Shown piece after piece: positions 27,579 through 49,430 of a stretch of 64,000 bases of DNA (positions are counted from its first letter, which is position 1; every line of letters begins with the position of its first letter). A program made the position numbers and the translations under genes. The notes under the pieces are model-generated. The model had not been told where the DNA came from, did no database searches, and was given only the letters and a program-made list of their open reading frames with translations. This DNA comes from Spirochaetia bacterium (GTDB lineage Bacteria > Spirochaetota > Spirochaetia > DSM-2461). Location: contig CAXXIA010000002.1 in NCBI GenBank assembly GCA_963666985.2, forward strand, positions 1,600,001 through 1,664,000, in the 5' to 3' direction.

Positions 27579-27731
27579 TTGTATTTCTTTTTTTAAATAA
27601 AGAAATCCTATGCCATCGATGCACAAAAAACTGATTTATGAATATTCTAATTAATTACAGTAAACATTTGAAGAGGCTTCGTTAGCACAGGTTTGTTAAT
27701 CATTCCTTCGGCTTTAATCGGAATCTGCAAA

Positions 27732-28628
27732 TCAAGCACCTTCCGGGAACCAGTTATTTCGTCCCTTTATCCAAGGAAAAAGACGGCTCATCTGCTCTCT
27801 CCGAACAAAGTGAGCTTCGTTTTCAGGCAATTGCCGTTCCAAACGATTTAAGGCGGCAATATAATAACCTAGCAGCCGGAGTAACCCCGAAAGGATATAA
27901 GGTTTCTCAATAAATGCTCTTTTAACACATTTTGCATGAATAAACAGCGGATGCATACTCAGGCAATAATCTGTTTTCCCAAGATTAATTCGAGCCTTAA
28001 GTATACCGGAAGAATTTCCGGTTCCCAATGGTCTATTATGGGTAACAACAATCGAAGGAAAAGACCACGTTTCCCATCCGTTTAAACGAGCGGCGATCTC
28101 CATTCTCGAATCTTCACCGCCATACTTAAACGGGATGTAGCCGCCAAGAACTTCAAAGCATTCTCTACGAAAAACTTGAAGAGCTTTGGGCGTCGATCGA
28201 CGATCTATATTAATAATCTTTATTTTCCCTTTATGAGATTCCTGATAAACACCCGTTGCAATTCCCAATTCCGGAAACTTTGTCATTTTTTTATAGATCT
28301 GTTCGTAATAATTTTCTACAAGTTCGATATCAGCATCCAGAATAGCAAGATATTCATAATCTGTAACACCGGCCTCTTCAATACCATAATTTATAGCAAA
28401 AACATTACTGCTATAATATGTTTGACCCGGTACTCGTTTTCGATCCAACAACCGTATCCAATTATTATCTTTTAAATATTTTGATACAATGTTTTTTGAC
28501 TGATCAAGAGAACCATCATCTACGATGATCCATTGAATTGGTTTAATTGTCTGGGAGAGAACACTTCTAATTGTTTTTTCAATATAGCGTTCTTCATTAA
28601 ACATTGGTGTAATAATGATATATTTCAT
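27732..28628 (-). CDS. Glycosyltransferase family 2
   Basis: IITPMFNEE, IVDDGSLD, LDAD, GGED. Confidence 0.9.
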   Translation of the reverse strand: MKYIIITPMFNEERYIEKTIRSVLSQTIKPIQWIIVDDGSLDQSKNIVSKYLKDNNWIRLLDRKRVPGQTYYSSNVFAINYGIEEAGVTDYEYLAILDADIELVENYYEQIYKKMTKFPELGIATGVYQESHKGKIKIINIDRRSTPKALQVFRRECFEVLGGYIPFKYGGEDSRMEIAARLNGWETWSFPSIVVTHNRPLGTGNSSGILKARINLGKTDYCLSMHPLFIHAKCVKRAFIEKPYILSGLLRLLGYYIAALNRLERQLPENEAHFVRREQMSRLFPWIKGRNNWFPEGA

Positions 28629-28891
28629 CTGATGTTCTCTAACGGATCCTTTATAAAAATTAGGCTGAAAACGCATTAAAATCCAATCGGGCAATAATAC
28701 AATAATGCAAGAATAACACTATTTTTTCAGCCCTTTTCGCGATTGTAATATTTCATAATTAAACAAGATCTACAATCACTTCAATCATGAAATTGCTTTC
28801 AAGTCATGATGTTAATAGCTGTTTTTTTCTCATTTCCATCAATCCGGTTCCGATGATATCGGGTTACATTCATCAATTCTCTTCCAACAGA

Positions 28892-29875
28892 CTACTTATA
28901 TTCAATAATCGTATTCTTTCGGCGGAACCGATTATTTATACGATACTTACACAAACCAATAAATTGAGGTAATTTGGCCGCCATACAATGAATTGAATAA
29001 ATCACGGCTTCATTCTTTTTTAATCCTTGCCTCCGCCAAAGAGATAGAAAGATTTTCACTGTCATTAACGGGTAAACAATAAGGAAAAATAAACCCCTTC
29101 CGCCAAGTAGAATCAAGAAGATAACGGTAATCAGCGGAATTACCCCTATCCAAAAAAGAAGACTTCGCTTTTCCTTAACATAATAATGCTCCCGAGAGCG
29201 ACCATACATGGAAGAGCCCAAAGCATAGGCATATCCTCCTCTCATGGAACGACGCCACCATTGAAAAAAATGCGTCATCGCGACATCATGAAACCCCATT
29301 TCGTCTGGGATTCTCCATATTTTATAGCCGATGGAACGAATTCTTATGCACAGTTCCCCCTCTTCTCCTGCGATAACGGTCTTATTCATTCCACCAAGAC
29401 GGCGATATACTTCTGATCGAACTACAAAAATCCCGCCGCAGGCTTCTATTTCGCCTACAGGGCCCCTCCATTCGATATCACAAATCCTATTATAAATAGT
29501 CTTCTCGGGATATTGTTCATAAAGAAATCCGCAGACAACCGCGACGTTCTTCGATTCGTTAAGAAAAGAGACTGCCTTCTCCAGCCATCCGTTACTCAGC
29601 TCACAGTCTCCGTCAACAAATTGGACGTATTCAAGCTCAGGGTATCGTTCCGTCAGCTTTTCAAAGCCCTCGTTCCTTCCGCGGGCTGCTGAAAATGGCT
29701 CATCGGCGCTAAGCTCCCATACAAGCACGCCCATTTCTTTCGCCAAAAAAACACTATTGTCCGAAGAACCCGAATCAACATAGATAACCTTCTCGGTAAC
29801 ATGTAAAACGGACTTCAAACAAAGCGGAAGACGCTTGCCCTCATTTCTTCCGATAACAACGACACCGATATTCAT
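28892..29875 (-). CDS. Glycosyltransferase family 2
   Basis: IGVVVIGRNEG, YVDSGSSD, FSAARGRNEG, FVDGD, AGEEGELC. Confidence 0.9.
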   Translation of the reverse strand: MNIGVVVIGRNEGKRLPLCLKSVLHVTEKVIYVDSGSSDNSVFLAKEMGVLVWELSADEPFSAARGRNEGFEKLTERYPELEYVQFVDGDCELSNGWLEKAVSFLNESKNVAVVCGFLYEQYPEKTIYNRICDIEWRGPVGEIEACGGIFVVRSEVYRRLGGMNKTVIAGEEGELCIRIRSIGYKIWRIPDEMGFHDVAMTHFFQWWRRSMRGGYAYALGSSMYGRSREHYYVKEKRSLLFWIGVIPLITVIFLILLGGRGLFFLIVYPLMTVKIFLSLWRRQGLKKNEAVIYSIHCMAAKLPQFIGLCKYRINNRFRRKNTIIEYK

Positions 29876-31119
29876 ATACTTTTCACTTCCGTTCTTTCCG
29901 ATGGATGTAAAATATCTTCAAAGAAGTTCGCCATGCTTCGACAATTTTTTCTCAGATCATAATCTTCCAGAATTGTTTTCCTTCCGCTTTCACCAAGCCG
30001 CTTTCTTTTTGAAGGATCATTTATGAGGTCTCGAATAGCCTCTACCAGCGACGTGGTTTCGGAGGCATAGACAAGCCGGCCATTCTCGCCGTCCCGGATC
30101 AACTCCGGGATTCCGTTTATATATGTGGATATCGTTGCAATGCCTTTAGCCATTGATTCCATAAGAACCACGGGCAAGCCTTCGGCAAAACTGGGAAGAA
30201 TGAAAATATCAGCTTTATCGTAGTATTGATGAACTTCCGCTTGTCCAACGGCACCGGTAAAGCTAACGGCCTCTTCCCAGCCATGCTCCGCTACGGCTCG
30301 CTCTAATCCCGCACGATCCGGGCCGTCGCCAACAAATGTCAAATGAACATTTAGACCTTCCGAAAGGAGAAGTCCAACCGCCTCCAGAAGAATATGCTGA
30401 CCCTTAGCCGGAACAAGACGACCCAGGCAGAGAATCTCTGGAATATTATTGCCGGGTTCGGGCCGAAGATCGAAAACATCGGGATCAATTCCACAGCGTA
30501 TAATTCGAAATTTGGTCCAATCCTCTGTCGGAACAAGGCGCATGGCTTGACTGCAGCAATAATGACTGATACATCGAACACCGGCCGCTCTCTGAATCTT
30601 ACGAACCAACGCGTTCCCGGGAATGTCGAAAAAAACATCCGGTCCATGGAGACTAATGCTGTACTCAAAAGATCCATAACTCGCGGCAATCATCGCAACC
30701 GTGGCCGCAGGATTCGCAAAATGAACATGAAGATGAACGGCTTCATTTCTTTTCATCCAGCGAATTATAAGGACGGCCTCGAAGAAGTACATTGTTCTTT
30801 TAATCCAAGAAACCGAAGTCTCATCCAATAACCTATGCGCATTAATAAATAAGCGCAAATAGCGAAAAGGAGAAGAAAAGAAAAGACTTAGGTGATCCCT
30901 AAAGACAGTCATCTTCCCGGCCGACTTAATATAAAAGGTCTCTTGTTTGTCCCGCTGTTCTTCGGGGGTCATTCTTTCAACATTCTTTGAATCGTTAATA
31001 GATGCTGTTATAACACTATACCCCCGGTCGCGAAGAATCCGTACCTCTCGAAAAATAAAGGTATGAGAGATAGCCGGGTACTCGCTCGCAAGATAGCCAA
31101 TTTTTTGATTAGTTATCAT
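29872..31119 (-). CDS. Glycosyltransferase family 4 (WcaL-like)
   Basis: YPAISHTFIFRE, HLHVHFAN, GRLVPAKG, PSFAEGLPVVLMESMA. Confidence 0.92.
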   Translation of the reverse strand: MITNQKIGYLASEYPAISHTFIFREVRILRDRGYSVITASINDSKNVERMTPEEQRDKQETFYIKSAGKMTVFRDHLSLFFSSPFRYLRLFINAHRLLDETSVSWIKRTMYFFEAVLIIRWMKRNEAVHLHVHFANPAATVAMIAASYGSFEYSISLHGPDVFFDIPGNALVRKIQRAAGVRCISHYCCSQAMRLVPTEDWTKFRIIRCGIDPDVFDLRPEPGNNIPEILCLGRLVPAKGQHILLEAVGLLLSEGLNVHLTFVGDGPDRAGLERAVAEHGWEEAVSFTGAVGQAEVHQYYDKADIFILPSFAEGLPVVLMESMAKGIATISTYINGIPELIRDGENGRLVYASETTSLVEAIRDLINDPSKRKRLGESGRKTILEDYDLRKNCRSMANFFEDILHPSERTEVKSI

Positions 31120-31258
31120 CGGATCACCTTCTACCGAAAAGGCCTCTCCGGAGAAGGACTCTTTGGTATTTTCACTCCTTAAATGAGTTATTCAAATTCC
31201 CTATACGTTTATCCGGAGTATGTTAACCATGGAAAATCTCATAAAAGACGCATGTTAC

Positions 31259-32389
31259 TCAATCATCCGTTTCGGATACATCGGCCGGTTTCGTACCCCG
31301 AAGCTTCGCCGAAAGCGATTCGGTAAGCATTACCAGAATCGCCCAGGGAGTTTTCAAGATAATCCAAACGTCATTAAGAAAGGTTATCTTTTTGCAATAG
31401 GCGATGTCCAGACGAATCATCTGTTTGAAAGTTAACTTGTTCTTTCCGCTAACCTGCCAAAGGCCTGTAAGACCCGGCATTGTATCGAATCTGTGTGTGT
31501 GCCAACGAAGATATTCCTGTGCCTCGTAGGGTATACAGGGACGGGGACCGACCAGACTCATATCTCCTTTTAATATATTCCAAAGCTGAGGCAACTCGTC
31601 GATACAGGTCGCTCTTAGGATTTTTCCCCCGGGGATAATGCGAGGATCGTGTCCGTCCAGTTTATCCATGGGAACATTTCCATCCTTGATAAAATTTTGT
31701 GAATGTTTGCCATGAAAATCCTGATCGTTCCCATGTTTCATAGATCTGAACTTGTGGAATTGAAACGGGATTCCCTTATAGCCGATTCTTTCCTGATGAA
31801 AGAAAATAGGACCCGGTGAAATTATTTTTATATACAACCCGACAAAAATAAGGAGTGGCGAGAGAAGCAATATCATCAAAAAGGAAATAAGGATGTCCAT
31901 TGTCCTTTTCCAGATAGGCATCTTATAAACAAAGATAGCTTCCATGGCGGCTTTGCTTTCGCTGGAGAGAAAATCCTGATGCAAACCACCGCCGAGATAA
32001 TTCGCAACCCAATGATCCGGATAGGTATACACATTTAACTCGAAGTAGTGTCGATAATGACCGAGGATACCCCGACATTTTTCGCAAAAAACGCGGGCTC
32101 CCTCGTTGTCGGTATCCGGCAGAAGAATGGAAATATTCCCCTGTTTATCCCATGCAACTCGATCTACGGATCTGATGGAATGGAAAATTGCGATAAGGAG
32201 TTCATTAAAAATGACCTCTTCTTTGAGTATAAAATCTAAAACAACCATAGAAAACGGATTCCCGAATCGATTTGACCTAACCCGTTCGTGATTGACGAGG
32301 ACTCGAAACTCTTCAGGTGAAAGAATAATCCCCGTTTCCGGGAACTGAAGACCATGCGCGGCCGATTTTTTTATCTTTGAGGCTATCAT
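31259..32389 (-). CDS. Priming phosphoglycosyl transferase (bacterial sugar transferase) with N-terminal degenerate GGDEF-like domain
   Basis: KRTMD, KFRSM, DPR, IDELPQLWNILKGDMSLVGPRP; N-terminal ERVRSNR...RSVD...ILLPDT. Confidence 0.9.
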   Translation of the reverse strand: MIASKIKKSAAHGLQFPETGIILSPEEFRVLVNHERVRSNRFGNPFSMVVLDFILKEEVIFNELLIAIFHSIRSVDRVAWDKQGNISILLPDTDNEGARVFCEKCRGILGHYRHYFELNVYTYPDHWVANYLGGGLHQDFLSSESKAAMEAIFVYKMPIWKRTMDILISFLMILLLSPLLIFVGLYIKIISPGPIFFHQERIGYKGIPFQFHKFRSMKHGNDQDFHGKHSQNFIKDGNVPMDKLDGHDPRIIPGGKILRATCIDELPQLWNILKGDMSLVGPRPCIPYEAQEYLRWHTHRFDTMPGLTGLWQVSGKNKLTFKQMIRLDIAYCKKITFLNDVWIILKTPWAILVMLTESLSAKLRGTKPADVSETDD

Positions 32390-32517: not shown

Positions 32518-33558
32518 TTAATGCTGCTTTTCTTCTATTTCGCTCAGGATCCCTTTCGACGGCTTCCTGCGGATCAGCGCCCGCCGGGCCTTTACCCAAA
32601 ATTCACAGATATAAACAATAATCATTATTTGGACTATTGAGATTAAAAAGGAAGAGAAGACATCATTGGAAAAGCCGCCGAAAACAAAAGCTAGAGATTT
32701 TTTAATCAACCCGCCGATTATTGTATGAAAGGCTAGAAGCGGGATTGCATAGCGATTGATCAGCCTTGTTAAGCTGGTCGGTTTAAGGCTTCTGGAGGCA
32801 ATGATTACAGTATAAATACCGAAAAGCGACGCAGGAATAAGGATCATGACTTTTCCCGCTTCATGATAATATAAATCTAATCGGCCGTTTGAAAACGCAA
32901 GAAATATTGATATGAGAAAGAATGGAATCAATAAATGTTCCTCAATTTTCAACAATCCGGGCGATTCTTTTGAATTGTAGATCGCACCTAAGTGAAAATA
33001 AAACAGCCCGATAAAGGCAATATCGATACTCCACGGTAATGCGAATTTGAATTTAAAAAGATATATCCCAAAAATGGTCAGCAACAAAAAAACAATTGTA
33101 TTTATCAGCGCTCCAAGTTGAAGCTTTTCGAATAACCAATAGAATTCATTCATTAGAAAAAGACAGGGTAAAAACCACATAGGTATTCCCCATTCCATAT
33201 ATTTCGGGCCACCCTGAGCGTAAAATATACCTATTACGTTTTTTATTACCCTCTCACAACTTGTAATCCCTCCCGACAGCCATCCCAAAGAAAGCCATTT
33301 AAGAAATAAAATTGCAGCGAATATAAAATAGGGAAGAACAAGTCGGTGAATCTTCTTCCGTGTAAAAGTCGCAAATGATGATTCTCTTTTGCAGTTAAAA
33401 ACAACACCGCTAATAAAAAAGAACAAGGGAATATGAAAAGAATATACATAGTGAAAAACCGGATTCTGAATGTGATGGCCCCAAATCACGCAAAAAATGC
33501 CGATTGCGCGCGCAGTATCAATGTATTGCAGTCTATCCTGCTGAGTTATTTGATTCAT
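32518..33558 (-). CDS. Acyltransferase family 3 (membrane O-acyltransferase)
   Basis: RLQYIDTARAIGIFCVIWGH, YSFHIPLFFFISG, RLVLPY, MWFLPCLF; about 10 TM helices. Confidence 0.9.
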   Translation of the reverse strand: MNQITQQDRLQYIDTARAIGIFCVIWGHHIQNPVFHYVYSFHIPLFFFISGVVFNCKRESSFATFTRKKIHRLVLPYFIFAAILFLKWLSLGWLSGGITSCERVIKNVIGIFYAQGGPKYMEWGIPMWFLPCLFLMNEFYWLFEKLQLGALINTIVFLLLTIFGIYLFKFKFALPWSIDIAFIGLFYFHLGAIYNSKESPGLLKIEEHLLIPFFLISIFLAFSNGRLDLYYHEAGKVMILIPASLFGIYTVIIASRSLKPTSLTRLINRYAIPLLAFHTIIGGLIKKSLAFVFGGFSNDVFSSFLISIVQIMIIVYICEFWVKARRALIRRKPSKGILSEIEEKQH

Positions 33559-33572
33559 TGTTGCTGTGTTTC

Positions 33573-36500
33573 CTAAATTGCGTTGTTTTCTAAAGCCTGT
33601 TTTATTTTATTAGCCGTCTCTTCGGCATAAGGCGCTTTCAGGATTTCCAAATGTGTCCCCGGTGTATTTTCAATAAACAAGTTATCTCCGAAATACTCAG
33701 CCCAGCCATACTTGGGATCAAAATAGAATCCGGGCTTATTCTGCTCTCCAATTGCTTTTATTAGCAATGTTTTTCCTTGATACTTATATTTGTGAGAAAT
33801 ATTATTTTTTTCGAATTGTTTGGTGGCAACTTGGTAAACTCGAATTCTTTGCAGAAGATTCATATCATTCTCTGTTTGTGTATTATGCTTCAGACTATCG
33901 ATTTTTTCCTTGATGGCTTTTAGGGTGGCAGGAACTCCCCTCTTAAAACTTTTTTTAATTTGATTCATCAATTTCTCAATTGGCTTTCGCTTGATTGCCG
34001 AAAGAAGTAATGTGTCAAGTATAATCAGTAATTCCACCTCTTGTCCGGCTTCCTTAAGTTTCTTTGCCACATCATATGCCACAACCCCGCCGAAAGATAA
34101 ACCGATGATGGAAACAGGTCTTCCCTGACTATGCTGTCGGATAATATTACAATAATCGGAAGCAAATGCTTCAATATTCCATTCGTCCTGACCTTGATCC
34201 CCAATAAGCAGATTTACTTCCCTGGGATGGTATGTAGCATAGCATTTTGCAATATCGGCCAAATGAACCGCTAATTCATGGTACATCTGAACACCAATGA
34301 CAAAATAGAAAAGCCGATCTGCAGAAGATTTATTGATTTCGATAACATTCTTTAATTCATATTCCGGTTGAGAATGAAGAAGCTCATAATTTTCCGCGTT
34401 TCTGGATAAACTTCCCAACAATCCTCTTAAGATATGATTACAATCTATAAAATTCGTTTGCAGAACATCGCCCTGCTCCGCTTCGGAGTTAATGTAACTG
34501 AGTAATTTCAAGGTTCCATTATCTTCACGGACATCCAGGTACAGTGGATTTTTCTCCCAAATTCGCGGGTTGAATGAATATTCAAACTCAAGCCCCGGAA
34601 AGTCCAAGTCACCTTCTTTATAGGCGGCACTATTATTAATGACAAAATCAGCTTGCGGTATTCTATCCCCTAATTCCACTCGTAAACTTTCTATATCAAC
34701 CAAATGATCATAAGCATTTAAAAAAGCCGTTTGTGTTGCCTTCACAATATCTAGAAAACTACTTTTAGTTGTAAGGTCCAAATTCAACAAAACAAGATTG
34801 GCACAGTTCCCGATCAAGTCGTGTTTGTTAACCCATAACTGACCGGCGATTGGAACTCCAATGGTAATGTTTGATCGTCCGAATGTATCTCTCAAAATGG
34901 AGTACATCATCGATACCATCAAAATAAACACGCTGTAGTTTGTTGTTGCGCTTACGTTCTTTAACTGACGGTACACATCACCGTCTATTGAAAACTCTCT
35001 ATACCTTGTCTTAATTGTTGAGCAGGAACCTATCTTAATAATTGGCTGCACGGTTTTTGCTCTGAATTGATCAAAACGCTCATTCCAATAATTTATTATG
35101 CCTTGATAAGTTTCTTCTTCTTTTCGACTTTTCAAGAAATGTACATAATCATGGAAATCGAATACCGTAGTTTGGGACTTGGATTCGACCCCGAGGGTAT
35201 ACGCCTCGGACAATTTTTTTAAAATAATATCGAAGGACCATCCGTCACATATGGATCTGTGATACAGAAGAAGTACGATCCATTCATCTCTTGTTTTTCG
35301 TAGGATATGAACTCTGATCAACGGACCGTCGGTAAGATTGAAGGGCGATTGGTGTTCATGTAAAAGAAGATCGTTATAGAACGCATCCTGTGTTTTTTCG
35401 GGAGATTCCCTCAGATCATGAAATTCATATAACGGAAAGAAATTTTTGCGAACGCGAAATCCTGTTCCCTCTTGTGTATAGACCGCATGCAATATTTCAT
35501 TATTGCTGATTACCTTGTTGAAAGAATCGGTAAATCGATCCTTGTCAAAATCACCTTTGAAAAACAATCTAACCGAATCGATATATAAGCAGGAACGTGT
35601 TTCGTCTTTGCATTCTTGCCATATCGATATTTGGGCGTCGGTGGCCGGAATTTCATAATTCCCGAGATTTTTTCTTTCAAGTATTTCATTCTCTGAAATA
35701 GATACTTCGACATTTCGTGAAGGATTTAAATTCTTCTTGTGAGTATCGATATATTCAAAAAGAAGCCTGATATTGGGGTATTCTTGGAGTAACTGGCCAA
35801 AGGTTACGTTAACCTTAAATTCTTTACTAACCCGATATGCAATCTGAGTTAATAAAAGAGAATCCATCCCCATTTCCATAAAGGTAGATTCTTCATCGAA
35901 GTCATCAAGGGAAAACCCGGAGGTCTCTTCAAAAAGAGAAACGAGTTTCTCAACGCTTCCGGAGGTCTTATCCTCCGTCAATTCCTCGGACGCTCCCGTT
36001 GAGAATCCGTTTTCACGCTCCCCGTCGTTATCACCTGTTTCCATCACCTTAATAACAACAGGATCAACCCAATAACTTTTCCGATCAAACTGATATGTGG
36101 GAATAGGAATCTTCCTTCTTATTTCATTCTGGTAGAACGATTCCCAATCTATGGAATATCCGTAAAGCCAGAGCTGGCCAACGGCTCTTAAGACCGCCGT
36201 ATATTCGGCATTATTCTCCGCTTTAGAATCCATGGAAGAAATAATTCCCCGCGCTTTATTCGGTTGAAGATGCTGTCGGGTAAGTGTCGCAAGTGTATTC
36301 CGTGGGCCAACTTCCAAGAAAACAGCATTCTCTCTTTCGGAAAGGTATTGAATTGCATTGGAAAAAAGCACCGGGTTTTTAACGTGATTACCCCAATAAG
36401 ACGGTTCCGTTAATTCTTCTGAAACCGCTCTGCCCAGAACCGTAGAGACAATAGGAATCTGAGGCGTCCGTAAAGAAACCTTGGCCACCTCTTCCGTAAA

Positions 36501-39500
36501 AACAGGAACAACCGGTTCCATCATCTCCGAATGAAAAGCATGAGAGGTATGAAGAAGACTGTGCGGAATCTCTTCTTTCTCCAGAGTCACGATAACTCCG
36601 TTTATGGCCTCATCCGGTCCCGATAAAACACAGAGATTTGGACTATTAACCGCCGCAAGCTGAATGGATTCGGATAAATACTTCTCCACCTCTGCAACCG
36701 GCGCCTTCACGGAAAGCATACATCCGCCGGGCATCTCTTTGACTAATCGACCTCGGGCGGCTACAAGAGTCAGAGCTTCTTCTAAGGTAAATACACCGGA
36801 AAGACAGGCACATACAAACTCACCAATGCTGTGCCCAACCAGAATTGACGGCTTTATTCCCCAAGACATCAGGAGCATGGATAAAGCATACTCAATCACA
36901 AAAATAGCAGGCTGAGTAAAAAATGTATCCTTTAATGCTTCATAAGAGGCTTTTTCATCTTGTGAATCAGGATAAACAACCGTCCGAAGATCTCGACCAA
37001 GAAGATTCTCCAGAAAATCACAGCACTGATCGACAGCTTGTTTGAAGATAGGCTCTCCCGCATAAAGCTGTTTTCCCATATTGATGTATTGCGATCCCTG
37101 TCCGGGAAACATAAAGACGATTTCAGGCTCTTTCTCCAAACACGTTCGCGATCCTGTTGTTAACGGCGACCTCTTGCCGAATGCCTCCTGAGGATTTACA
37201 TCATCAGGAACAACAAGAAATCTCCTTTCGGAAAAACCTCTCCGCCCCGTCTGAAGAGTATAGGCCGCATCGGCTTTGACATTGGCTTTTTCAGCCGATA
37301 AAAAATGCCCCATCTTGGCTGTTACTTCCTCTAAGCTTGAAGAAGTTTTCGCAGACAGAAGAAACAATTGAACGGGCCGGGAAGGGCCTGATTCGTTATA
37401 GACTGGAGCTTCCTTTACAACAGCATGAACGTTTGTTCCGCCGAAACCGAAACTTGAAACGGCCGCAATTCTTTTTTTCCCGCCTCTTTTCCAAGCAGTC
37501 CTTTTATTAACAACCCAAAACGGACTGCTTGGAAAATCAATTTGCGGATTCTGAGATTTATAATTAAGCGTTGCGGGGATCTCCTCATGATAAAGACAGA
37601 GCGCCGCCTTGATTAAACCGGTAACTCCAGATGCAATCGTTGGGTGACCGATATTTCCCTTTATGGATCCAATTCCGCAAAATTGTGTCTTGTCCGTTTG
37701 CTTCCTGAATGCTTTAGTCAATGCTTCGATTTCTATGGGATCACCTATCGGCGTAGCCGTCCCATGAGCTTCAATGTAGCCGATATCTTCACTCACTACA
37801 TTTGCTTCGGCTTGAGCCCTTTCTATCACATCGGATTGTCCGGAAACACTCGGAGCAAGAAAACTGATCTTTTGTGATCCGTCGTTGTTTTTCGCGGATC
37901 CGATAATCGTGGCGTAAATCGTATCATTATCTTCCAAGGCTTCTTCCAGCCTTTTCAGCACAACAACACCAACACCATCGCAAAACATCGTTCCGGATGC
38001 CTCGGCGTCAAAGGGGCGGCAATGACCGTCTTTGGAAAAGGTTCCGCTCGGTTGATACAGGAATCCCCTTCTTTGAGGAATCCCTATATCGGAACCTCCG
38101 GCTATGGCGATATCACATTCATAATCCCTTAATGCCCGAAAGGCCAAATCCACAGCAAGAAGACTCGTTGAACAGCCAGTGTTTACGCTTACACCCGGTC
38201 CGGTTAAGTCAAGGGCATAGCACGTTCTTGTAGCGATATAATCCTTTTGGTTCCCATACTCAACGGTAAGATTGCCTACGGTATCAAGTAAATCTTTATG
38301 TCCGATTAAATTGACTGAGTAGTAGTGATTATCTCCGACTCCCGCGAAAGCGCCTATCGTGCCCGGATACGACTCCGAATCATAGCCGGCATGTTCCAGC
38401 GCCTTCCATGCCTCTTCAAGAAAAACCCGCTGCTGGGGGTCCATTACTTTTGCTTCCAGAGGAGAAACCCCAAAGAAAGAGGCATCAAAAAGATCTGCGT
38501 TATTTACGATACCTCTTGCAAGAATGTAATTCGGATTGTCCAGGAGATCTTCGTCGATACCCGGGCTCAATTGATCACGGGTAAAACGCGTAATTGACTC
38601 AACCTCGTTTATAATATTTTGCCAAAGTTCATCAATTGAATCGGCTCCCGGAAAACGGCCGGACATACCGATAATTGCGATTCCTTCGATATTATTGTGA
38701 TGCTTTTTGGAATAAAGATGTTTCTTTAACGACGAATTCCTTGCATTGCCGTCAAGCAGATCGGCAAATTGAGCTATCGTCGGATATTGAAATATTCTGA
38801 GGACCTGATAATCGGTACCAAAAGTGTCGTTTATTCTCGAAATCAGCTGGATTGCCAGAAGAGAAGATCCCCCAACTTCGAAAAAGCTGTCGTCAATTCC
38901 AATTCGGTCAAGATCAAGCTGTTCCTGCCAGAGACCTACGAGCTTTTTCTCCGTTTCACTCCTCGGGTTAATATAGGGAGTGGAAATATCCGGACGTGTT
39001 TGAACGGGTTTCGGTAATAATTTTCTATCCAGTTTACCATTGGAACTAAGCGGAAATTCATCTATACGTACATAGTGGCTCGGCACCATATACTCTGGGA
39101 GTTTCTGCCTGAGATGATCTTTGTATATTGAGATTGGGACGGATTTTTCCGTATTGGTTTTAACATATCCAACAAGACGTTTGAAACCCGGAACATCTTC
39201 CCTTAAAATCACAACCGCCTGATCCACAATCTCAAGTTCTTCAAGGCAAGATTCAATTTCTTCCAGTTCTACACGGAAGCCGCTGATTTTTACTTGTGAA
39301 TCAATCCTGCCCAGATATTCCACCGCACCATCGTCCCTGATCTGAGCCAAATCTCCCGTTTTATAGAATCTTATACAGCACCCTTGTGCATCCGCTTGCG
39401 TTATGAATTTTTCCGCCGTCAGTTCGGGCTTATTGATATATCCTCTCGCAACACCTATACCTGAAATATACAGCTCACCGCTTTCCCCTCTCTTAACCTC

Positions 39501-40529
39501 ATTACCGTTTTCGTCATGAATCGTAATATTGATATTGGAAATCGGAAAACCAATGGGCACACGGGAAAGATTTTTATCAGGACGACAATGCCAGCTGGTT
39601 ACATCAACGGCAGCTTCGGTAGGACCATATAGATTGTATAAATCGCCCTTACATAAATCAAAAAATCGATTATGAACGGCAACGTCCAAAGCCTCCCCGC
39701 TACAAATGACAAACCGAAGGGAATCGGAACGCTCCATTCTTTGTGATTCAAGAAATATCCGAAGCATAGAGGGAACGAAATGAACTATTGTTACGTTCTC
39801 CTCATCGATTAAATTAAGCAGATATTCAGGATCTTTATGTCCCTCGGGACGGGCAATTACCAATCGGGCGCCGATCATAAGCGGCCAAAAGAACTCCCAT
39901 ACGGATACATCAAATGAATACGGAGTTTTTTGAAGAACCGTATCCTCTTGTGTCATCTGAAATTCAGACTGCATCCACAGCAATCGGTTAACAATGCCGT
40001 CGTGCTGGTTCATAACGCCTTTAGGCATTCCCGTTGAACCGGAGGTATAAATTAAATACGCCAAATTTTCAGGAGTAACGGAGACTTCCGGATTTTCAAT
40101 GGCCGCCTCAGTCGGATCTAAATATTCACCAATACTGATAAAACGTATGGAAGATGTTATTTTCTCTTTAAATTTTATTTGCCCCAAGACAAGCAAAGCA
40201 CAGCTTTCTTCCAGCATATAATGAATTCGTTTTTCAGGCAGTGACGGATCTATCGGCAAATAAGCACCGCCTGCTTTGAGAATAGCAAGAAGAGCTATGA
40301 CCATCTCAAAAGATCTTTCCGCACAGACTCCGACGATTATATCTGCTTGCACACCAGCACGAATTAAATCTCGGGCGAGTATATTGGCTCTGAGATTCAT
40401 TTCAAAATAACTGAGAGATTGCTTTTCAAATTTCAGGGCTATTTGGCTGGGAAATCTGCTCGCCTGCTCTTCAATATAATGATGTAAACACTTTTCCCGA
40501 ATAAATTTATCATTCCCCGTGGCCGACAT
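33573..40529 (-). CDS. Hybrid NRPS / type I PKS: A-T-KS-AT-ACP-C(degenerate)-TE
   Basis: A: YTSGSTGMPKG, FDVSVWE, YGPTE, YKTGD, NGKLDR; T: FFEVGGSSL; KS: TGCSTSL, EAHGTAT, NIGH; AT: GQGSQ, GHSIGE, HAFH; ACP: MGMDSL; C: HRSICDG; TE: GLSFGG...GTH. Confidence 0.93.
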   Translation of the reverse strand: MSATGNDKFIREKCLHHYIEEQASRFPSQIALKFEKQSLSYFEMNLRANILARDLIRAGVQADIIVGVCAERSFEMVIALLAILKAGGAYLPIDPSLPEKRIHYMLEESCALLVLGQIKFKEKITSSIRFISIGEYLDPTEAAIENPEVSVTPENLAYLIYTSGSTGMPKGVMNQHDGIVNRLLWMQSEFQMTQEDTVLQKTPYSFDVSVWEFFWPLMIGARLVIARPEGHKDPEYLLNLIDEENVTIVHFVPSMLRIFLESQRMERSDSLRFVICSGEALDVAVHNRFFDLCKGDLYNLYGPTEAAVDVTSWHCRPDKNLSRVPIGFPISNINITIHDENGNEVKRGESGELYISGIGVARGYINKPELTAEKFITQADAQGCCIRFYKTGDLAQIRDDGAVEYLGRIDSQVKISGFRVELEEIESCLEELEIVDQAVVILREDVPGFKRLVGYVKTNTEKSVPISIYKDHLRQKLPEYMVPSHYVRIDEFPLSSNGKLDRKLLPKPVQTRPDISTPYINPRSETEKKLVGLWQEQLDLDRIGIDDSFFEVGGSSLLAIQLISRINDTFGTDYQVLRIFQYPTIAQFADLLDGNARNSSLKKHLYSKKHHNNIEGIAIIGMSGRFPGADSIDELWQNIINEVESITRFTRDQLSPGIDEDLLDNPNYILARGIVNNADLFDASFFGVSPLEAKVMDPQQRVFLEEAWKALEHAGYDSESYPGTIGAFAGVGDNHYYSVNLIGHKDLLDTVGNLTVEYGNQKDYIATRTCYALDLTGPGVSVNTGCSTSLLAVDLAFRALRDYECDIAIAGGSDIGIPQRRGFLYQPSGTFSKDGHCRPFDAEASGTMFCDGVGVVVLKRLEEALEDNDTIYATIIGSAKNNDGSQKISFLAPSVSGQSDVIERAQAEANVVSEDIGYIEAHGTATPIGDPIEIEALTKAFRKQTDKTQFCGIGSIKGNIGHPTIASGVTGLIKAALCLYHEEIPATLNYKSQNPQIDFPSSPFWVVNKRTAWKRGGKKRIAAVSSFGFGGTNVHAVVKEAPVYNESGPSRPVQLFLLSAKTSSSLEEVTAKMGHFLSAEKANVKADAAYTLQTGRRGFSERRFLVVPDDVNPQEAFGKRSPLTTGSRTCLEKEPEIVFMFPGQGSQYINMGKQLYAGEPIFKQAVDQCCDFLENLLGRDLRTVVYPDSQDEKASYEALKDTFFTQPAIFVIEYALSMLLMSWGIKPSILVGHSIGEFVCACLSGVFTLEEALTLVAARGRLVKEMPGGCMLSVKAPVAEVEKYLSESIQLAAVNSPNLCVLSGPDEAINGVIVTLEKEEIPHSLLHTSHAFHSEMMEPVVPVFTEEVAKVSLRTPQIPIVSTVLGRAVSEELTEPSYWGNHVKNPVLFSNAIQYLSERENAVFLEVGPRNTLATLTRQHLQPNKARGIISSMDSKAENNAEYTAVLRAVGQLWLYGYSIDWESFYQNEIRRKIPIPTYQFDRKSYWVDPVVIKVMETGDNDGERENGFSTGASEELTEDKTSGSVEKLVSLFEETSGFSLDDFDEESTFMEMGMDSLLLTQIAYRVSKEFKVNVTFGQLLQEYPNIRLLFEYIDTHKKNLNPSRNVEVSISENEILERKNLGNYEIPATDAQISIWQECKDETRSCLYIDSVRLFFKGDFDKDRFTDSFNKVISNNEILHAVYTQEGTGFRVRKNFFPLYEFHDLRESPEKTQDAFYNDLLLHEHQSPFNLTDGPLIRVHILRKTRDEWIVLLLYHRSICDGWSFDIILKKLSEAYTLGVESKSQTTVFDFHDYVHFLKSRKEEETYQGIINYWNERFDQFRAKTVQPIIKIGSCSTIKTRYREFSIDGDVYRQLKNVSATTNYSVFILMVSMMYSILRDTFGRSNITIGVPIAGQLWVNKHDLIGNCANLVLLNLDLTTKSSFLDIVKATQTAFLNAYDHLVDIESLRVELGDRIPQADFVINNSAAYKEGDLDFPGLEFEYSFNPRIWEKNPLYLDVREDNGTLKLLSYINSEAEQGDVLQTNFIDCNHILRGLLGSLSRNAENYELLHSQPEYELKNVIEINKSSADRLFYFVIGVQMYHELAVHLADIAKCYATYHPREVNLLIGDQGQDEWNIEAFASDYCNIIRQHSQGRPVSIIGLSFGGVVAYDVAKKLKEAGQEVELLIILDTLLLSAIKRKPIEKLMNQIKKSFKRGVPATLKAIKEKIDSLKHNTQTENDMNLLQRIRVYQVATKQFEKNNISHKYKYQGKTLLIKAIGEQNKPGFYFDPKYGWAEYFGDNLFIENTPGTHLEILKAPYAEETANKIKQALENNAI

Positions 40530-40543
40530 AAAAAGACCTCTTG

Positions 40544-41476
40544 TTAACTAAAAACATCACTTTGTAAAAATTTGATTATGCTGTCTTGGTCCATCACACC
40601 ATGCCCGCCGCGAAGTTTCAACCACCTTACCCGATAGCCTAGACTTACAGCCTTTTCCGCCATTAATTTATTTCCCGAATAGAGCCCTAAAGCATCCTGT
40701 TTCCCACAGGAAATATAAACGCTGTTTTCTTTCGGCGCGGTTCTCATCGTTTGGAAAATGTTATACCGATTCCAGTCGTCTTCAGTCGTTAAATAGCGTT
40801 TTTGAATGGATAAAACCGATTGGGCGCCATCCGTCCAGAGTTCTTTACGCAACACAATGTTTTTTATTTTTTCTCTTATCGTATTTCCGCCGTTCCTTTT
40901 CAGAAATCCATTAATTTCTTCATCTGTTGCGGTAAATGGAATGGGATAAATTCCTGCGGAAATCAAGATGGCGGAATTAAAGAAATCTGGATGATTGAAA
41001 AAGAGATACGAAGCACTCGTCCCGCCCATTGAAAAGCCCATTATAATTCTTTGATGATTCTTCCACCCCAGTTTTGACTCTATTTCCGGAATAACATCTT
41101 GAATTAAACGCTGTCCATAATCATTCTGCGGATCCGTAGGATTGGGTATGCACATAGTTTCCGGACCCGCCGAAAGCGATACAACCGCAATATTTTTACT
41201 TGTTGTTTTAAAATATTGATCATAATAACCCATCTCGGAATACCATGAGTCTTCGTTTCCGCCCTGGCCGTGCAGGTAATAGAAAACAAATTCCGGAGGA
41301 GTATGCTCCTCATTACCATAAAGCAAAACAACAGCACGAAAAGAATGTAATTCCATTCGTTCCATCTCAACTCGTTCTCCGCTCGTATTTTCGAAAAAAG
41401 CCTCCGCCTTTTGCCTTGGGATACAACCCGTGATGAACAATATCAACAGTAAAAAGGGAAGACTTCCTTTCTTCAT
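40544..41476 (-). CDS. Lipoprotein alpha/beta-fold esterase
   Basis: Lipobox ITGC, YYLHGQGG, GFSMGG, CGKQD, GGH. Confidence 0.85.
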   Translation of the reverse strand: MKKGSLPFLLLILFITGCIPRQKAEAFFENTSGERVEMERMELHSFRAVVLLYGNEEHTPPEFVFYYLHGQGGNEDSWYSEMGYYDQYFKTTSKNIAVVSLSAGPETMCIPNPTDPQNDYGQRLIQDVIPEIESKLGWKNHQRIIMGFSMGGTSASYLFFNHPDFFNSAILISAGIYPIPFTATDEEINGFLKRNGGNTIREKIKNIVLRKELWTDGAQSVLSIQKRYLTTEDDWNRYNIFQTMRTAPKENSVYISCGKQDALGLYSGNKLMAEKAVSLGYRVRWLKLRGGHGVMDQDSIIKFLQSDVFS

Positions 41477-41642: not shown

Positions 41643-42818
41643 TTAGTTTGGGTTAACATTATTGGAGCGCACATTTTCATTCGTTTCATTTAATTTGGAT
41701 TCGGCGGAATGCCGACGTTTCGCTTTTTGATGAACATAAGAAACAAAATGTCCGATCATCACGGGAACCGTTTTCAGAATAATTCCAAGGTCTTTCCAAA
41801 AAGAAAGATTTTCTCCATATCTGATATCCAATCGAATCATTTCCTTGAACGTCAGAGTATGCTTTCCACCAACCTGCCATGAACCCGTTAATCCCGGAAC
41901 GATATCGAATCGTTTTTTGTGCCAGTGAAGATACAGCTCGGCTTCATCGGGAAGGCACGGACGAGGGCCAACAAGGCTCATATCACCGCCCAGAACATTA
42001 AAAAGCTGAGGAATCTCATCCAAACCCATGGCTCGAAAGAAACCGCCACCGGGAATGAGATGCGGATCCCAATAATCGGTACCCATCGGTGTATTGCCAT
42101 CACGAATGAAACTTAACAAATCGTTATTTGCTTCCTCTTTATTACCATCGAGCTTCATCGTTCGAAATTTAAGAATTTTTATAATACGTCCGCCAAGACC
42201 GACCCGCTCTTCATGCTGAAAAATTGGTCCGGAAGACACACAGATAATGTAGAGAGGAATAAAAAGGAAAAGGGGGAACGAAACAACCAAGCCTAAAACG
42301 CTTACAAAGACATCAAGGTATCTCTTCCATCGCGGAGGTTTCTTGCAAAACATATCCGCAAGTTTGGCATCGTAGGTAGAGTAGTACTCAGGTTCCTCTT
42401 CATCGTCGTCCACAACCATTGTGATATTGCTTATTCTGGGATACATGCTCAAGCCGACGGATTTAACCAATTTAAAATCCGCAGTGGAGTCATGAACATT
42501 TTTAATAAATGCTTGAGCCCCGCTTATGGTTGTATCGGGCAGAAGAATGCCGATTTTTGAGTCCGAATGCCACCCCGCGTAATCGGTAATACGCATGTTT
42601 ATAAATATTGTTGCGAGAAAACGGCGAAACGTATAAAGAGTAACGGCATCAAAGTCAATTTCAATAAAAACCAAACAAAAACGACTTTTGGTTCGATCGG
42701 CCCGCATTCTTTCGTAACGTATGAGCTGGTGGAAGGCGTCGCGTCTAAGCGCGCCTTCCTGGTGGGTGTGCGTTACTTGAAAAGCATTAAGGGGAGTCCA
42801 TCTCGTTTTCTTGCCCAC
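41643..42818 (-). CDS. Second priming phosphoglycosyl transferase with N-terminal degenerate GGDEF-like domain
   Basis: KRYLD, KFRTM, LDEIPQLFNVLGGDMSLVGPRP; N-terminal ERMRADR...RITD...ILLPDT; GTG start uncertain. Confidence 0.88.
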   Translation of the reverse strand: MGKKTRWTPLNAFQVTHTHQEGALRRDAFHQLIRYERMRADRTKSRFCLVFIEIDFDAVTLYTFRRFLATIFINMRITDYAGWHSDSKIGILLPDTTISGAQAFIKNVHDSTADFKLVKSVGLSMYPRISNITMVVDDDEEEPEYYSTYDAKLADMFCKKPPRWKRYLDVFVSVLGLVVSFPLFLFIPLYIICVSSGPIFQHEERVGLGGRIIKILKFRTMKLDGNKEEANNDLLSFIRDGNTPMGTDYWDPHLIPGGGFFRAMGLDEIPQLFNVLGGDMSLVGPRPCLPDEAELYLHWHKKRFDIVPGLTGSWQVGGKHTLTFKEMIRLDIRYGENLSFWKDLGIILKTVPVMIGHFVSYVHQKAKRRHSAESKLNETNENVRSNNVNPN

Positions 42819-43577: not shown

Positions 43578-44819
43578 ATGGCCGTAATGAATAAACTTCC
43601 CACTCTCACAGAACCGATTGAAACACCGGATAAACCAAAAAGTATTATAGATATCCTTCTTAAATACCTCATAATGCTCTGGCGTTACCGCGTGTTGATG
43701 GGAATTATCACAGCCTCGGGAACCTTCGTCGTTTTTACATTCTGCCTGCTTACCAAACTGCTGCCGCCGGAGATCAATCCTATGCCGAATCAATATACGG
43801 CCCAAGCGGTTCTCCTTGTCGATCGAGACAGTTCCGGCGGAGGGATCGGTTCCATTTTAGCCAGTTACGGTATGAATCTCGGCTTAGGATCATCTTCCGG
43901 CGGTAATAATATCGACCTGATTCTGACCATCTTGGACAGCCGTCCTTTTCTCGACCTTTTGGTGGAAGAATTTGATATTATCAACGAGAGAAGAATCAAA
44001 CTCGACCCAAAAACGAATTCCCGTCTAATAATTCAGAACATGTCCTCTCATTGGTATGATAAAACTTCAAATACGCTTACTTTAAGCTGTACCCACACAG
44101 ATCCGGAGTATGCGGCCGATTTCGTTAACAGACAGATTGAACTTCTCGAACAATGGTATACGCAATTCGGCGGACAGCGCGCCGAAAAGGATCTTCACCT
44201 CCTCGAGGTTCAGCTGGCCAACCAGGAAGGCCAAATAGCCCGGCTTGAAGATGAAATTAAAAAATTTCAACAGGAAAACAACACCATTTCGATCGAAGAT
44301 TTGGCCGCTCTTCAAGCGAAAATGATTGGCGATCTTCGAACCCAAATAACCCAGATTGATTTACAAATTCAAACGGCCCAGCAGTTTTCACAAGCCGCGA
44401 TTGAAAGCGAAAGCCTCATCAACTTAAGACTCCAGCGCAACAATCTGAACTATATGATTTCACAGTTGGAAAAAGGATATTCCGGCGGTGTAAAAATCAT
44501 GCCTTCGGCGGAAGAACTTCCGGACCTGGCCATCAAATATACAAAACTCCGTCAGGAAGCGGAGATTCAAGCAACTGTCTACCAAAAACTTCGGGAACAA
44601 TACGAAATAGCCAATCTCAATCAGGAACGAGCCGAAGCGTTCTCCGTGATGGAATATGCGGAAGTTCCCGAGTTAAAAGACTCTCCCCGCCGTTCGGTGA
44701 TTGTTGTCGGAGGCTTCTTCGTTTCTCTGCTCATCAGCATCCTCGTCGCATTCATTCTGGAATATTCGGGTCAAGTCATCGATATAATCAAGGAGAAAAT
44801 CAAGAATGAACAATCGTAA
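43578..44819 (+). CDS. Polysaccharide co-polymerase / chain-length determinant (Wzz/GumC-like, no kinase domain)
   Basis: TM-YTAQAVLL...coiled coil...EYAEVPELKDSPRRS-TM. Confidence 0.85.
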   Translation: MAVMNKLPTLTEPIETPDKPKSIIDILLKYLIMLWRYRVLMGIITASGTFVVFTFCLLTKLLPPEINPMPNQYTAQAVLLVDRDSSGGGIGSILASYGMNLGLGSSSGGNNIDLILTILDSRPFLDLLVEEFDIINERRIKLDPKTNSRLIIQNMSSHWYDKTSNTLTLSCTHTDPEYAADFVNRQIELLEQWYTQFGGQRAEKDLHLLEVQLANQEGQIARLEDEIKKFQQENNTISIEDLAALQAKMIGDLRTQITQIDLQIQTAQQFSQAAIESESLINLRLQRNNLNYMISQLEKGYSGGVKIMPSAEELPDLAIKYTKLRQEAEIQATVYQKLREQYEIANLNQERAEAFSVMEYAEVPELKDSPRRSVIVVGGFFVSLLISILVAFILEYSGQVIDIIKEKIKNEQS

Positions 44820-46314
44820 ACCACTATTACTTCTCTCCCTGATACTCCTCGGGGGTTTTGCCTGGGGGCAGGCTACTCCCGGAACCGACGAACAGGCCAA
44901 TTCGCCCAGCAGCGACCAAATGACGGCCATGGCTCTCGCCGATTCAACTTATCCGGTTACGCCCGGCGACCAATACAGCCTCTCTTTCTCCTTTCGCGGT
45001 CAGATGCAAGACGTTCCCATTTCCGTAACCACCGATTACCGTCTCGATCTTGGAATTTTCGGATCGGTTGAAGCCGACGGCTTAACATTCCCTGAACTTA
45101 AAACTCTCGCCGAACAGACGGTCAACGGGTTCTATCCGGGAAGCCACCCTCAGCTCACCATTGAAAGCATCGGTGAATTCCAAGTCAGTATCTTCATGGA
45201 AGGCAAAGGACCCGTTTCCATCAATGCCAGCGGATTAACCCGGCTTAAGGACGTCATCGACAATCTTGTTCCCGATGATGAATACTCTCAGCGGAAAATC
45301 CTCATTACAAACCGTTCCGGTGAGAGTTCCTATTACGACTACTATCGGTATCTTTACCGTCACGAAGAACGATCTAATCCCCACCTTCAGCCGGGCCAAA
45401 GAGTTCATTTCTCTTATTCGGATCTTGTTGTTGAGATTACCGGCGCGGTCCGGGAACCAAAGACAATCTCCATAATTGCCCGGGATACGATGGACTCAAT
45501 CATTTCCTATGTCGGAGGATTCACACAGGAAGCCGACCGATCCCGTATTCAAAAATGGCAAATCGTCGAGGGCGAGCAGATTTACAGTCTCCACGAATGG
45601 GGCGACAAGGAACTGCTGACCGCACGTTCAAGCCATCTGCGGATTAACGTCCCCGCCCGGGGAGAAACCCGTAAGGTTATGACCGTCGAAATCAATACGC
45701 CGGCGATAGATAATGACGATGATGATGTAACAATGTACGACGAAGTTCAGGGCGAGTCGGTTACGGGTGAATACATTCGTCTTACAATACCGGTATTCGA
45801 AGGTATGCTGGTTTCAGACGTACTGGAAGAAGTAAAACCCTACTTCACGCATATGACCGATCTTCGTTTCAGCAGTATTGTCCGCGAAGGCGAAGAAGAG
45901 CCCCTTCACGTTAATCTGGAAGATGTTCTCAACACCTCGGGCAGTCCTTATAACATAACGGTTAAGCCTAACGACATTCTGGGCATCCCAGCACGAATGG
46001 TATTCGTTTCGGTCTCGGGCGGCGTCTATGTTCCCGGCCGTTATTACTACACACCGATGAGAACCGCCGATTATTACATCACCATGGCCGGGGGTATCGA
46101 TCCCGAACAAAATTCCCATAGAAACATCGTGGTATATGATGAAACGGGAAACCAGAAAGACCGAAAGGCGTTAATAAAACCGGGCGACAATATCGTCGTC
46201 GTTCAAGACAACATGGTTTTTCAGTTTAACGAGAAATTTGCGGCCGTTACCACTGGACTGACATTCATCACGACTTTGACTCTTCTGATAACAACACTTG
46301 CCGGCGGACTTTAG
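44806..46314 (+). CDS. Polysaccharide export protein with SLBB domains (Wza/OPX-like)
   Basis: Signal peptide, YPVTPGD, VEITGAVREP, VSGGVYVPG...YITMAGG, C-terminal hydrophobic helix. Confidence 0.82.
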   Translation: MNNRKPLLLLSLILLGGFAWGQATPGTDEQANSPSSDQMTAMALADSTYPVTPGDQYSLSFSFRGQMQDVPISVTTDYRLDLGIFGSVEADGLTFPELKTLAEQTVNGFYPGSHPQLTIESIGEFQVSIFMEGKGPVSINASGLTRLKDVIDNLVPDDEYSQRKILITNRSGESSYYDYYRYLYRHEERSNPHLQPGQRVHFSYSDLVVEITGAVREPKTISIIARDTMDSIISYVGGFTQEADRSRIQKWQIVEGEQIYSLHEWGDKELLTARSSHLRINVPARGETRKVMTVEINTPAIDNDDDDVTMYDEVQGESVTGEYIRLTIPVFEGMLVSDVLEEVKPYFTHMTDLRFSSIVREGEEEPLHVNLEDVLNTSGSPYNITVKPNDILGIPARMVFVSVSGGVYVPGRYYYTPMRTADYYITMAGGIDPEQNSHRNIVVYDETGNQKDRKALIKPGDNIVVVQDNMVFQFNEKFAAVTTGLTFITTLTLLITTLAGGL

Positions 46315-46927
46315 ATTTCTTCGTTTCGAATCGATAATAAACACCGATTTTCATCTCCGTGAAGGGCACAATAACGTCGTAACTCGTCCTGAAGCGTTTC
46401 TGAACACCGCTGCCGGTATCGTACCAGCGATAACTGAGATCCAACCTTAACACGTCCATCGTCGCCCGAAGCGATAGGAACTCCGTCGGATTAATTTCAA
46501 CCATCAGCGGCCAAGCGGCGGATAGAGCCAAGGTAACATCCAGATCATACGTCGGATCGGTTACCGCCCAGCGTGTATCCAAACCGGTGGAAACTCCTGT
46601 CGCGAAACGAAAATGTTGTGTTCGGAACAAATGAAAATTGACATCGAATCCGCCCCCAAAAGTCACATAGCGCTCCAAAAGGCTGTCACCATCCTTTTCC
46701 GTTTCAATTGCGAAAACAGCAAAGGGAACATATTCCCGAAGTTCGCTTTTCATAATTGAAAATGACGGGGTTAGCTCAAGAGATAAATCTCGAGCTTTGT
46801 AACCGTCCATTGTAACATCCGTGATATTGTATAAATACGCTTCCAGCCCCGCTCCGTAAGTGGGGTATTCCGCCCAAAGACCAGCTGTAAGTAAAATCAG
46901 TAATGCTGATAAAAAAAACCTTTTCAT
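46268..46927 (-). CDS. Exported protein, probable outer-membrane beta-barrel
   Basis: Signal peptide MKRFFLSALLILLTAGLWA, amphipathic strands, IGVYYRF near C-terminus. Confidence 0.55.
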   Translation of the reverse strand: MKRFFLSALLILLTAGLWAEYPTYGAGLEAYLYNITDVTMDGYKARDLSLELTPSFSIMKSELREYVPFAVFAIETEKDGDSLLERYVTFGGGFDVNFHLFRTQHFRFATGVSTGLDTRWAVTDPTYDLDVTLALSAAWPLMVEINPTEFLSLRATMDVLRLDLSYRWYDTGSGVQKRFRTSYDVIVPFTEMKIGVYYRFETKKSKVRRQVLLSEESKS

Positions 46928-46962
46928 ATTCCCTCTCTCCATGGAATCTCTTCCGGAGTCGC

Positions 46963-48459: not shown

Positions 48460-48473
48460 TAAAGGAAGTCATT

Positions 48474-49427: not shown

Positions 49428-49430
49428 ATT

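Follow-up and report, generated by a model that had tools for sequence, protein, structure and literature searches.

A small NRPS-PKS and a dedicated, predicted exported esterase form a recurrent pair in spirochaete glycan loci, with an AT3 acyltransferase as an optional companion

Results

The three-gene cassette and its proteins

The window analyzed here is a stretch of 64,000 nucleotides from a Spirochaetia bacterium (contig CAXXIA010000002.1 of assembly GCA_963666985.2; the source genome is called G000 below). On its minus strand lie an esterase gene (41476-40544, with an ATG start and GGAGAGG 5 nt upstream), a gene for a hybrid nonribosomal peptide synthetase-polyketide synthase (NRPS-PKS; 40529-33573, 2318 aa), and a gene for a stand-alone AT3 acyltransferase (33558-32518, 346 aa). 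The firmest new result of this study is the link between esterase and synthase, which is closer than the tie of either to AT3; we take this small NRPS-PKS and its dedicated esterase with a predicted export signal to be the conserved pair. A first-pass annotation of the window had instead proposed a trans-membrane acyl relay, in which the synthase supplies a donor, AT3 moves it across the membrane, and the esterase transfers or edits it on the glycan. The arrangement on which that proposal was built is borne out by the coordinates of the open reading frames (ORFs), which are open, co-directional, and separated by two gaps of exactly 14 nt. This spacing likely points to an operon and to nothing beyond: it is ordinary ribosome-binding-site spacing, and the identical gap is also found between rmlD (end at 48459) and an epimerase gene (start at 48474). 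The GC content of the trio is 0.38-0.42, compared with 0.51 for the genome. Contigs from the source sample span the trio without differing letters, but, coming from the same sample, they are not independent support. A promoter scan gave 28 sites against 36 expected and was uninformative.

The esterase gene (40544..41476) encodes a predicted lipoprotein alpha/beta hydrolase of 310 aa (Pfam Esterase PF00756, E 1e-11). Its N-terminus consists of MKK, a hydrophobic stretch, and FITG-C18, which we take to be a lipobox by general rules rather than by a predictor; a Cys closes the hydrophobic leader in the same lipobox-like manner in all seven NRPS-linked esterases described below. The extracytoplasmic placement given by the first-pass annotation therefore stands at the level of the leader motif, from which export, and not a cytoplasmic location, is predicted. 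The candidate catalytic triad is Ser149 (in GFSMGG), Asp261, and His292; all 40 aligned rows share the Ser and the His, and 39 of them the Asp. In the structure model (pLDDT 90.6), a helical lid covers approximately residues 185-243, and the best fold matches are EstA (Z 21.0), CE1 feruloyl esterases (Z 20-21), MPT51 (Z 19.8), and antigen 85A (Z 18.3), at identities of 14-22%. By Pfam and fold the protein thus belongs with the alpha/beta hydrolases, in the CE1/antigen-85 group, and is not an SGNH protein like AlgJ/AlgX, PatB, or the OafA domain, to which the first-pass annotation referred. An exhaustive protein search returned 723 proteins at E up to 0.001, none of them more than 41% identical; a word-index search found no relatives.

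The synthase (33573..40529) has the domain order adenylation (A), peptidyl carrier (T), ketosynthase (KS), acyltransferase (AT), acyl carrier protein (ACP), condensation (C), and thioesterase (TE), with no ketoreductase, as judged from Pfam matches and motifs. The A domain (39033..40472) is predicted to activate L-Ser: its pocket segments FDVSVWEFFWP, HFVPSML, CSGEAL, and NLYGPTEA agree with those of EntF, Txo1/2, and FscH, which we take to be Ser-activating and on which the assignment is based. It scores above the cut-off of the amino-acid adenylation model TIGR01733, whereas the DltA model, despite an E-value of 2e-93, remains below its cut-off. The peptidyl carrier (38754..38945, GGSSLL) is followed by KS and a cis-AT (36213..38684; Cys in TGCSTS and His in EAHGT and GHPT for KS, GHSIG and HAFH for AT, the latter presumably of the malonyl type) and by ACP (35721..35945, GMDSLL). 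The C domain (34503..35654) is degenerate, with HRSICDG in place of HHxxxDG, and no carrier follows it; the type I TE (33597..34298) has Ser in GLSFGG, Asp in ILDT, and His in GTHL. Thus the KS, AT, and TE motifs and both carrier serines are intact on inspection.

Judged by the relatives of its domains, the protein is a mosaic. The A domain is nearest to spirochaete C-A(Ser)-T modules (53%), KS is 66% identical to acidobacterial synthases and 63% to the orthologue from genome G562, the TE is nearest to those of synthases in spirochaete exopolysaccharide (EPS) loci (27-30%), and for the C domain no fetched relative exceeds 24%. A search with the C-TE region gave generic NRPS matches only (19-27%). 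The histidines are likewise lost from the matching C domain of the G562 orthologue, and a C-less form, A-T-KS-AT-ACP-TE, recurs in genomes G014, G045, and G242, so that a dead C domain need not block function.

Two further observations concern synthases of this kind in spirochaetes. A block consisting of C-A(Ser)-T, an AsnB-type amidotransferase, and (A(Gly)-T-)KS-AT-ACP(-TE) recurs in EPS loci (L197, L223, L233, L104, L110, L111, and L113, from G014, G045, G242, G111, G017, and G022), four times with a second amidotransferase-like gene. In genus g5, lasso-peptide-like genes (a transglutaminase-like B protein, a nucleotidyltransferase, and an ABC transporter) adjoin the EPS synthase loci (L111:17464-20000, L113:4860-8457, L245).

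Linkage of the esterase to NRPS-PKS genes

Searches with the esterase profile A1 covered overlapping sets of 401, 122, 38, and 401 genomes at thresholds from 1e-25 to 1e-45; in the two large sets, scoring was limited to five candidates for each genome. A close group (above 200 bits) was found in seven Spirochaetota genomes: G000, G023, G045, G562, G350, G538, and G539. In all seven the esterase adjoins either an NRPS/PKS gene (G000, G023, G045, G539, and G562) or the phosphopantetheinyl transferase (PPTase) gene that ends the synthase block (G350 and G538), and all seven synthases lie within glycan loci, often beside LbH, GNAT, or AsnB-type transferases. These genomes belong to three families, including that of the source, and represent about four independent lineages; the background is low, with a KS of this type present in only 14 of the 401 genomes of the phylum. 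The G045 and G562 loci were found after the link had been proposed, although the profile already included the protein from G562, before its gene context was seen.

Weaker matches (95-136 bits) occur at ten places in six genomes, and those included in the tree group apart in a clade of their own; none of the four distant esterases inspected with wide flanks lies in a glycan or NRPS locus. In a quick tree, built without bootstrap, six of the seven linked esterases fall into one lipoprotein group (support 88), with that of G045 outside. This clade also contains roughly 20 esterases represented by protein sequences only (P0123-P0148, P0161), of which P0123 is deltaproteobacterial. With the esterase as query, 75 metagenome loci were found, mostly distant hydrolases on short contigs, and none with a synthase match. 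The only member of the lipoprotein clade among them, L115, has the tail of a second, tandem esterase copy directly upstream (L115:1-300).

The cassette is patchy in distribution, since no KS or esterase match was found in any of 13 genomes of the same genus, several of which are incomplete. When 61 relatives were searched at the DNA level, ten other genomes gave matches, all of them short fragments of NRPS/PKS sequence.

Distribution of AT3

The AT3 protein (32518..33558; Acyl_transf_3 PF01757, E 3e-18, 66 bits against a cut-off of 31) is polytopic, in line with the first-pass annotation, with at least five strong membrane segments in a simple hydropathy scan that sets a lower bound; the same scan of the synthase gave only two marginal segments. 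The R17-X10-H28 motif of the first membrane helix is kept; all 54 rows have K or R at its first position and H at its last. At the RXXR position in the third helix the sequence is K69-I-H-R72; R or K occupies column 69 in 51 of the 54 rows, and column 72 is variable. There are at least 87 homologues, mostly 25-36% identical, several of them named 'fucose 4-O-acetylase-like'; the best full-length identity among the matches listed is 36%.

Four of the seven esterases have an AT3 of this subfamily within 13 kb, namely those of G000, G562 (1 kb), G538 (4.5 kb), and G045 (12.7 kb). The G023 locus contains a different AT3 and MBOAT/AlgX, and G539 has MBOAT/GDSL, its nearest AT3 being about 95 kb off, so that some AT3 or MBOAT gene is found within 13 kb in six of the seven. 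In G350, however, synthase and esterase are present without an AT3 or MBOAT gene on the 310-kb contig. This genome belongs to the same genus as G538, and the two assembly lines are 71-81% identical, the esterases 69%, and the PPTases also within 69-81%. That the contig of G350 has no AT3 while the related line of G538 has one nearby is the strongest argument that AT3 is not obligate; it is a frequent but optional companion of the synthase-esterase pair. The prediction that the three genes co-occur agrees with orthologous trios in three other genomes (G045, G562, and G538) but not, in G350, with AT3 as a fixed member. Genome-wide, G350 and G538 each have 11 MBOAT matches and one AT3.

AT3 genes are common in such loci, with two in the window, three in G562, and one in a PKS-free sister locus of G019. 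A control with synthase-free sister loci, for which 22 genomes were examined, yielded two loci, one of them cut, which is too few for an AT3 base rate. In G014 and G022 the PKS is flanked by AT3s of a different subfamily, 35% identical to each other, and in G022 the AT3 gene lies 3 nt before KS-AT-ACP-TE. The 401-genome sample contains seven more members of the trio subfamily, with neither a synthase nor an esterase within 11-20 kb. The two best of these synthase-free AT3s (L214:9248-12153 in G104 and L213:9623-15790 in G164) have as neighbors FabH with a 3-hydroxyacyl-CoA dehydrogenase, or else acyl-ligase genes, a hint that the subfamily may use donors other than acetyl groups.

In a quick AT3 tree without bootstrap (58 rows, that is, 16 locus AT3s and 42 of the 87 homologues, those with odd-numbered ids and at least 300 aa), the AT3s of G000, G045, and G562 form one clade (SH-aLRT 96) from which the seven synthase-free members are excluded; that of G538 lies outside. 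The clustering of the trio AT3s was equaled in 47 of 500 shuffles and is not significant, and their mutual identity is only 24-31%. No member of the subfamily was found with profile A3 in the fetched flanks of 52 acidobacterial-type loci; as this profile is subfamily-specific and missed the AT3 of G023, the acidobacterial negative rests on PF01757; among the matches listed for it in 46 genomes with synthase relatives, from which 14 weak ones are missing, none lies within 5 kb of the synthase and two lie within 15 kb (nearest 12.4 kb), many of the contigs being short.

Surroundings of the cassette

The trio is placed between two paralogous priming glycosyl-phosphate transferases inside a Wzx/Wzy exopolysaccharide locus. 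The upstream flank is formed by paralogue 2 (41643..42818, minus strand; Bac_transf, 39% identical to paralogue 1), and the downstream flank (26784..32389) by paralogue 1, a GT4, two GT2, and a WecG-type glycosyltransferase. The rest of the locus (43578..55924) contains genes for a chain-length protein, an OPX export protein, RmlC, RmlD, the epimerase, a GT2, a second AT3 (50613-51617), a pyruvyl transferase, Wzx, and a Wzy-like protein. None of the 30 ORFs scanned in the window encodes an LbH, GNAT, or MBOAT transferase or a dedicated exporter for a small molecule.

Both priming transferases (31259-32389 and 41643-42818) have a non-Pfam N-terminal domain, to which a stand-alone 160-aa gene product (43043-43525) is 27% identical; by eye only, the domain looks like a degenerate GGDEF fold. 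The genes for the second AT3, the pyruvyl transferase, and Wzx (50613-54417) have a very low GC content (0.28-0.35), which we read as a separate acquisition, and the second AT3 has no significant BLAST match to that of the trio.

Discussion

Because the esterase and the synthase are tied to each other more tightly than either is to AT3, we tentatively favor the reading that this pair decorates the polysaccharide, with AT3 as an interchangeable O-acylase, most likely an acetylase. As predicted from the motifs, the A domain would load L-Ser on the first carrier, and a single malonate extension by KS would give 4-amino-5-hydroxy-3-oxopentanoyl-ACP. The C domain would be a dead spacer, so that the TE would take the chain directly from ACP; it may act as a transacylase, as Pks13 does with trehalose, on a cytoplasmic acceptor such as a lipid-linked repeat unit or a small sugar carrier, flipped afterwards. 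The lipoprotein esterase may then move or trim the group outside the membrane via an acyl-enzyme at Ser149. AT3 would be an acyl-CoA (most likely acetyl-CoA) O-acyltransferase acting on the same polymer or on the synthase product, in a role that is useful yet replaceable by other AT3 or MBOAT/SGNH genes. The locus of G350 and the AT3 in the PKS-free locus of G019 agree with such a role, as does the conserved R-X10-H motif, whose Arg coordinates CoA in simulations (PMC9833829).

The functions assigned to TE and AT3 have a parallel in a known pathway with the same three enzyme classes. Mycolate assembly likewise combines, in one envelope pathway, a PKS of type I with a stand-alone AT3 and with a PF00756 hydrolase that is exported (PMC10171966, PMC9558356): Pks13 itself adds trehalose, TmaT only acetylates, and antigen 85 transfers outside (PMC10171966), TmaT being a stand-alone AT3 (PMC9558356). 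That pathway exports its product by an RND transporter, MmpL3, whereas here a tiny amino-acid ketide is predicted in a spirochaete and a Wzx/Wzy context, with no MmpL3-like gene among the scanned ORFs. The esterase shares with antigen-85-type transacylases the PF00756 fold, the Ser-acid-His triad, and predicted export by a leader motif.

Other known systems resemble the cassette in part. Those of the AT3-SGNH (OafA/OafB, OatA) and MBOAT/SGNH types (PatA/PatB, AlgI/AlgJ/AlgX) also pair, within a glycan locus, a membrane acyltransferase with a Ser hydrolase that is exported, and R-X10-H is kept; but their known donor is acetyl-CoA, the hydrolase here is predicted to be of the alpha/beta type, and it is the synthase, not AT3, that is the most constant neighbor. 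The Dlt system (DltA/C/B/D) combines an adenylation domain and a carrier with a membrane acyltransferase and an anchored outer protein. Its DltB, however, is an MBOAT protein, of which no match (PF03062) was found in the source genome, 93% complete, and the cassette has in addition PKS extension and a TE. The synthases of Acidobacteriota glycan loci, A(Gly)-T-KS-AT-ACP-C-T-TE, are 54-68% identical over T-KS and have glycosyltransferase, exosortase, and PPTase neighbors, but differ in an A domain with the pattern FDIS..E / MQATP, presumably of the Gly type, an intact HHxxxD, a third carrier, and the lack of an esterase or an adjacent AT3. In some acidobacterial relatives (2725-2793 aa), a C-terminal region without a Pfam match replaces the TE (L037:8444-16648, L048:8399-16780, L075:8429-16729). 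An orphan cluster of the Roseobacter group, likened here by description, also ties a small NRPS-PKS to glycosyltransferase genes, but consists of four separate genes for NRPS, PKS, glycosyltransferase, and PPTase, with no esterase or AT3 described (PMC4337385).

Several observations weigh against the pair as the functional unit. The esterase is on the strand opposite to the synthase, convergent with the block, in six of the seven loci. It is absent from seven spirochaete genomes with NRPS/PKS glycan loci (G014, G017, G022, G111, G168, G242, and G437), so the link is not two-way, although in G014 and G242 unrelated alpha/beta hydrolases with predicted export lie at the synthase end. None of the 52 closest T-KS loci, mostly from Acidobacteriota, has the esterase within the fetched flanks, and L115 shows no synthase within 5 kb downstream, its contig being cut upstream. 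The presence of AT3 in four of the seven esterase loci exceeds the expectation for an unrelated passenger. Finally, no Sfp-type PPTase was found in the 93% complete source assembly with PF01648 and a 26-sequence profile, the only PPTase found being of the AcpS type, whereas an Sfp-type gene lies beside the synthase in G350, G538, G045, G562, and 21 of the 52 acidobacterial-type loci. The acidobacterial loci by themselves would speak against the trio; the spirochaete genomes reverse this for the esterase and in part for AT3.

The full relay of the first-pass annotation would resemble the Dlt or PatA/PatB pathways, except that an alpha/beta hydrolase would take over the part of the SGNH protein: ACP or TE, or a CoA thioester, would feed AT3, which would pass the group across the membrane to Ser149 of the lipoprotein and on to the glycan. 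We consider this unlikely, and the order from donor through AT3 to esterase is only inferred. We retain it because the orthologous trio is found in four genomes of three families, because no LbH, GNAT, or MBOAT transferase was found among the scanned ORFs, and because an unknown partner of stand-alone AT3s has been postulated (PMC9833829). It also gains from the predicted export of the esterase, the lack of MBOAT matches in the genome, the AT3 or MBOAT gene near six of the seven esterases, and the clade that joins three trio AT3s to the exclusion of the synthase-free ones. An analogous trio in G014, with an unrelated AT3 and hydrolase, and the close AT3-PKS spacing in G022 point the same way, and the phosphopantetheine arm of a carrier resembles CoA. 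Against it stand the comparison of G350 with G538, the low mutual identity and non-significant clustering of the trio AT3s, and the lack of AT3 within 5 kb of the synthase in 46 close relatives. Moreover, the same AT3 subfamily accompanies synthases with differing predicted products, a Ser-ketide here and longer Gly-rich chains in G562 and G538. In vitro, AT3 donors are acyl-CoAs rather than ACP (PMC9558356).

Slightly less likely is that the synthase makes a free or lipid-bound small molecule, which the exported esterase would mature, recycle, or detoxify, the glycan locus providing co-regulation only. The aminoketo-acyl chain could cyclize to a 5-hydroxymethyl-tetramic acid, 4-amino-3-oxoacyl thioesters being prone to cyclization; the TE motifs are intact, and the top fold matches of the esterase are plain hydrolases. 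The location of all seven esterase-linked synthases in glycan loci, often with LbH, GNAT, or AsnB-type transferases, argues against this, as does the failure to find a dedicated exporter among the scanned ORFs. Least likely of all, the source copy, in which the C domain lacks its catalytic His and a following carrier and for which an AcpS-type PPTase alone was found, may be a decaying remnant of a larger assembly line that makes nothing, as its lack of matches in 13 partly incomplete congeneric genomes might also suggest, but its three frames are open, its KS, AT, TE, carrier serines, and esterase triad are intact, the C-less form recurs, and the assembly is 93% complete.

No description of this combination was found in the literature, in a coverage without most subscription journals and supplements. 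Relative to what was found, the esterase clade and its link to the synthase are new, NRPS/PKS genes beside glycosyltransferases being already known as orphans.

Small NRPS-PKS genes turn up as orphans in polysaccharide loci across many phyla. The locus described here is a minimal case, predicted to use a single amino acid, a single malonate, and a single TE, and its scanned ORFs include no LbH, GNAT, or MBOAT transferase; its product and acceptor are therefore testable with three purified proteins, and G350 and G538 provide a natural comparison without and with AT3. Should the relay prove true, an AT3 would be fed by an assembly line, an alpha/beta hydrolase would be the postulated missing partner, and the glycan would carry a new substituent. 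The esterase is also a concrete candidate for the partner suggested for stand-alone AT3s (PMC9833829). Overall, the esterase clade provides the first dedicated, predicted extracytoplasmic component for these orphan assembly lines.

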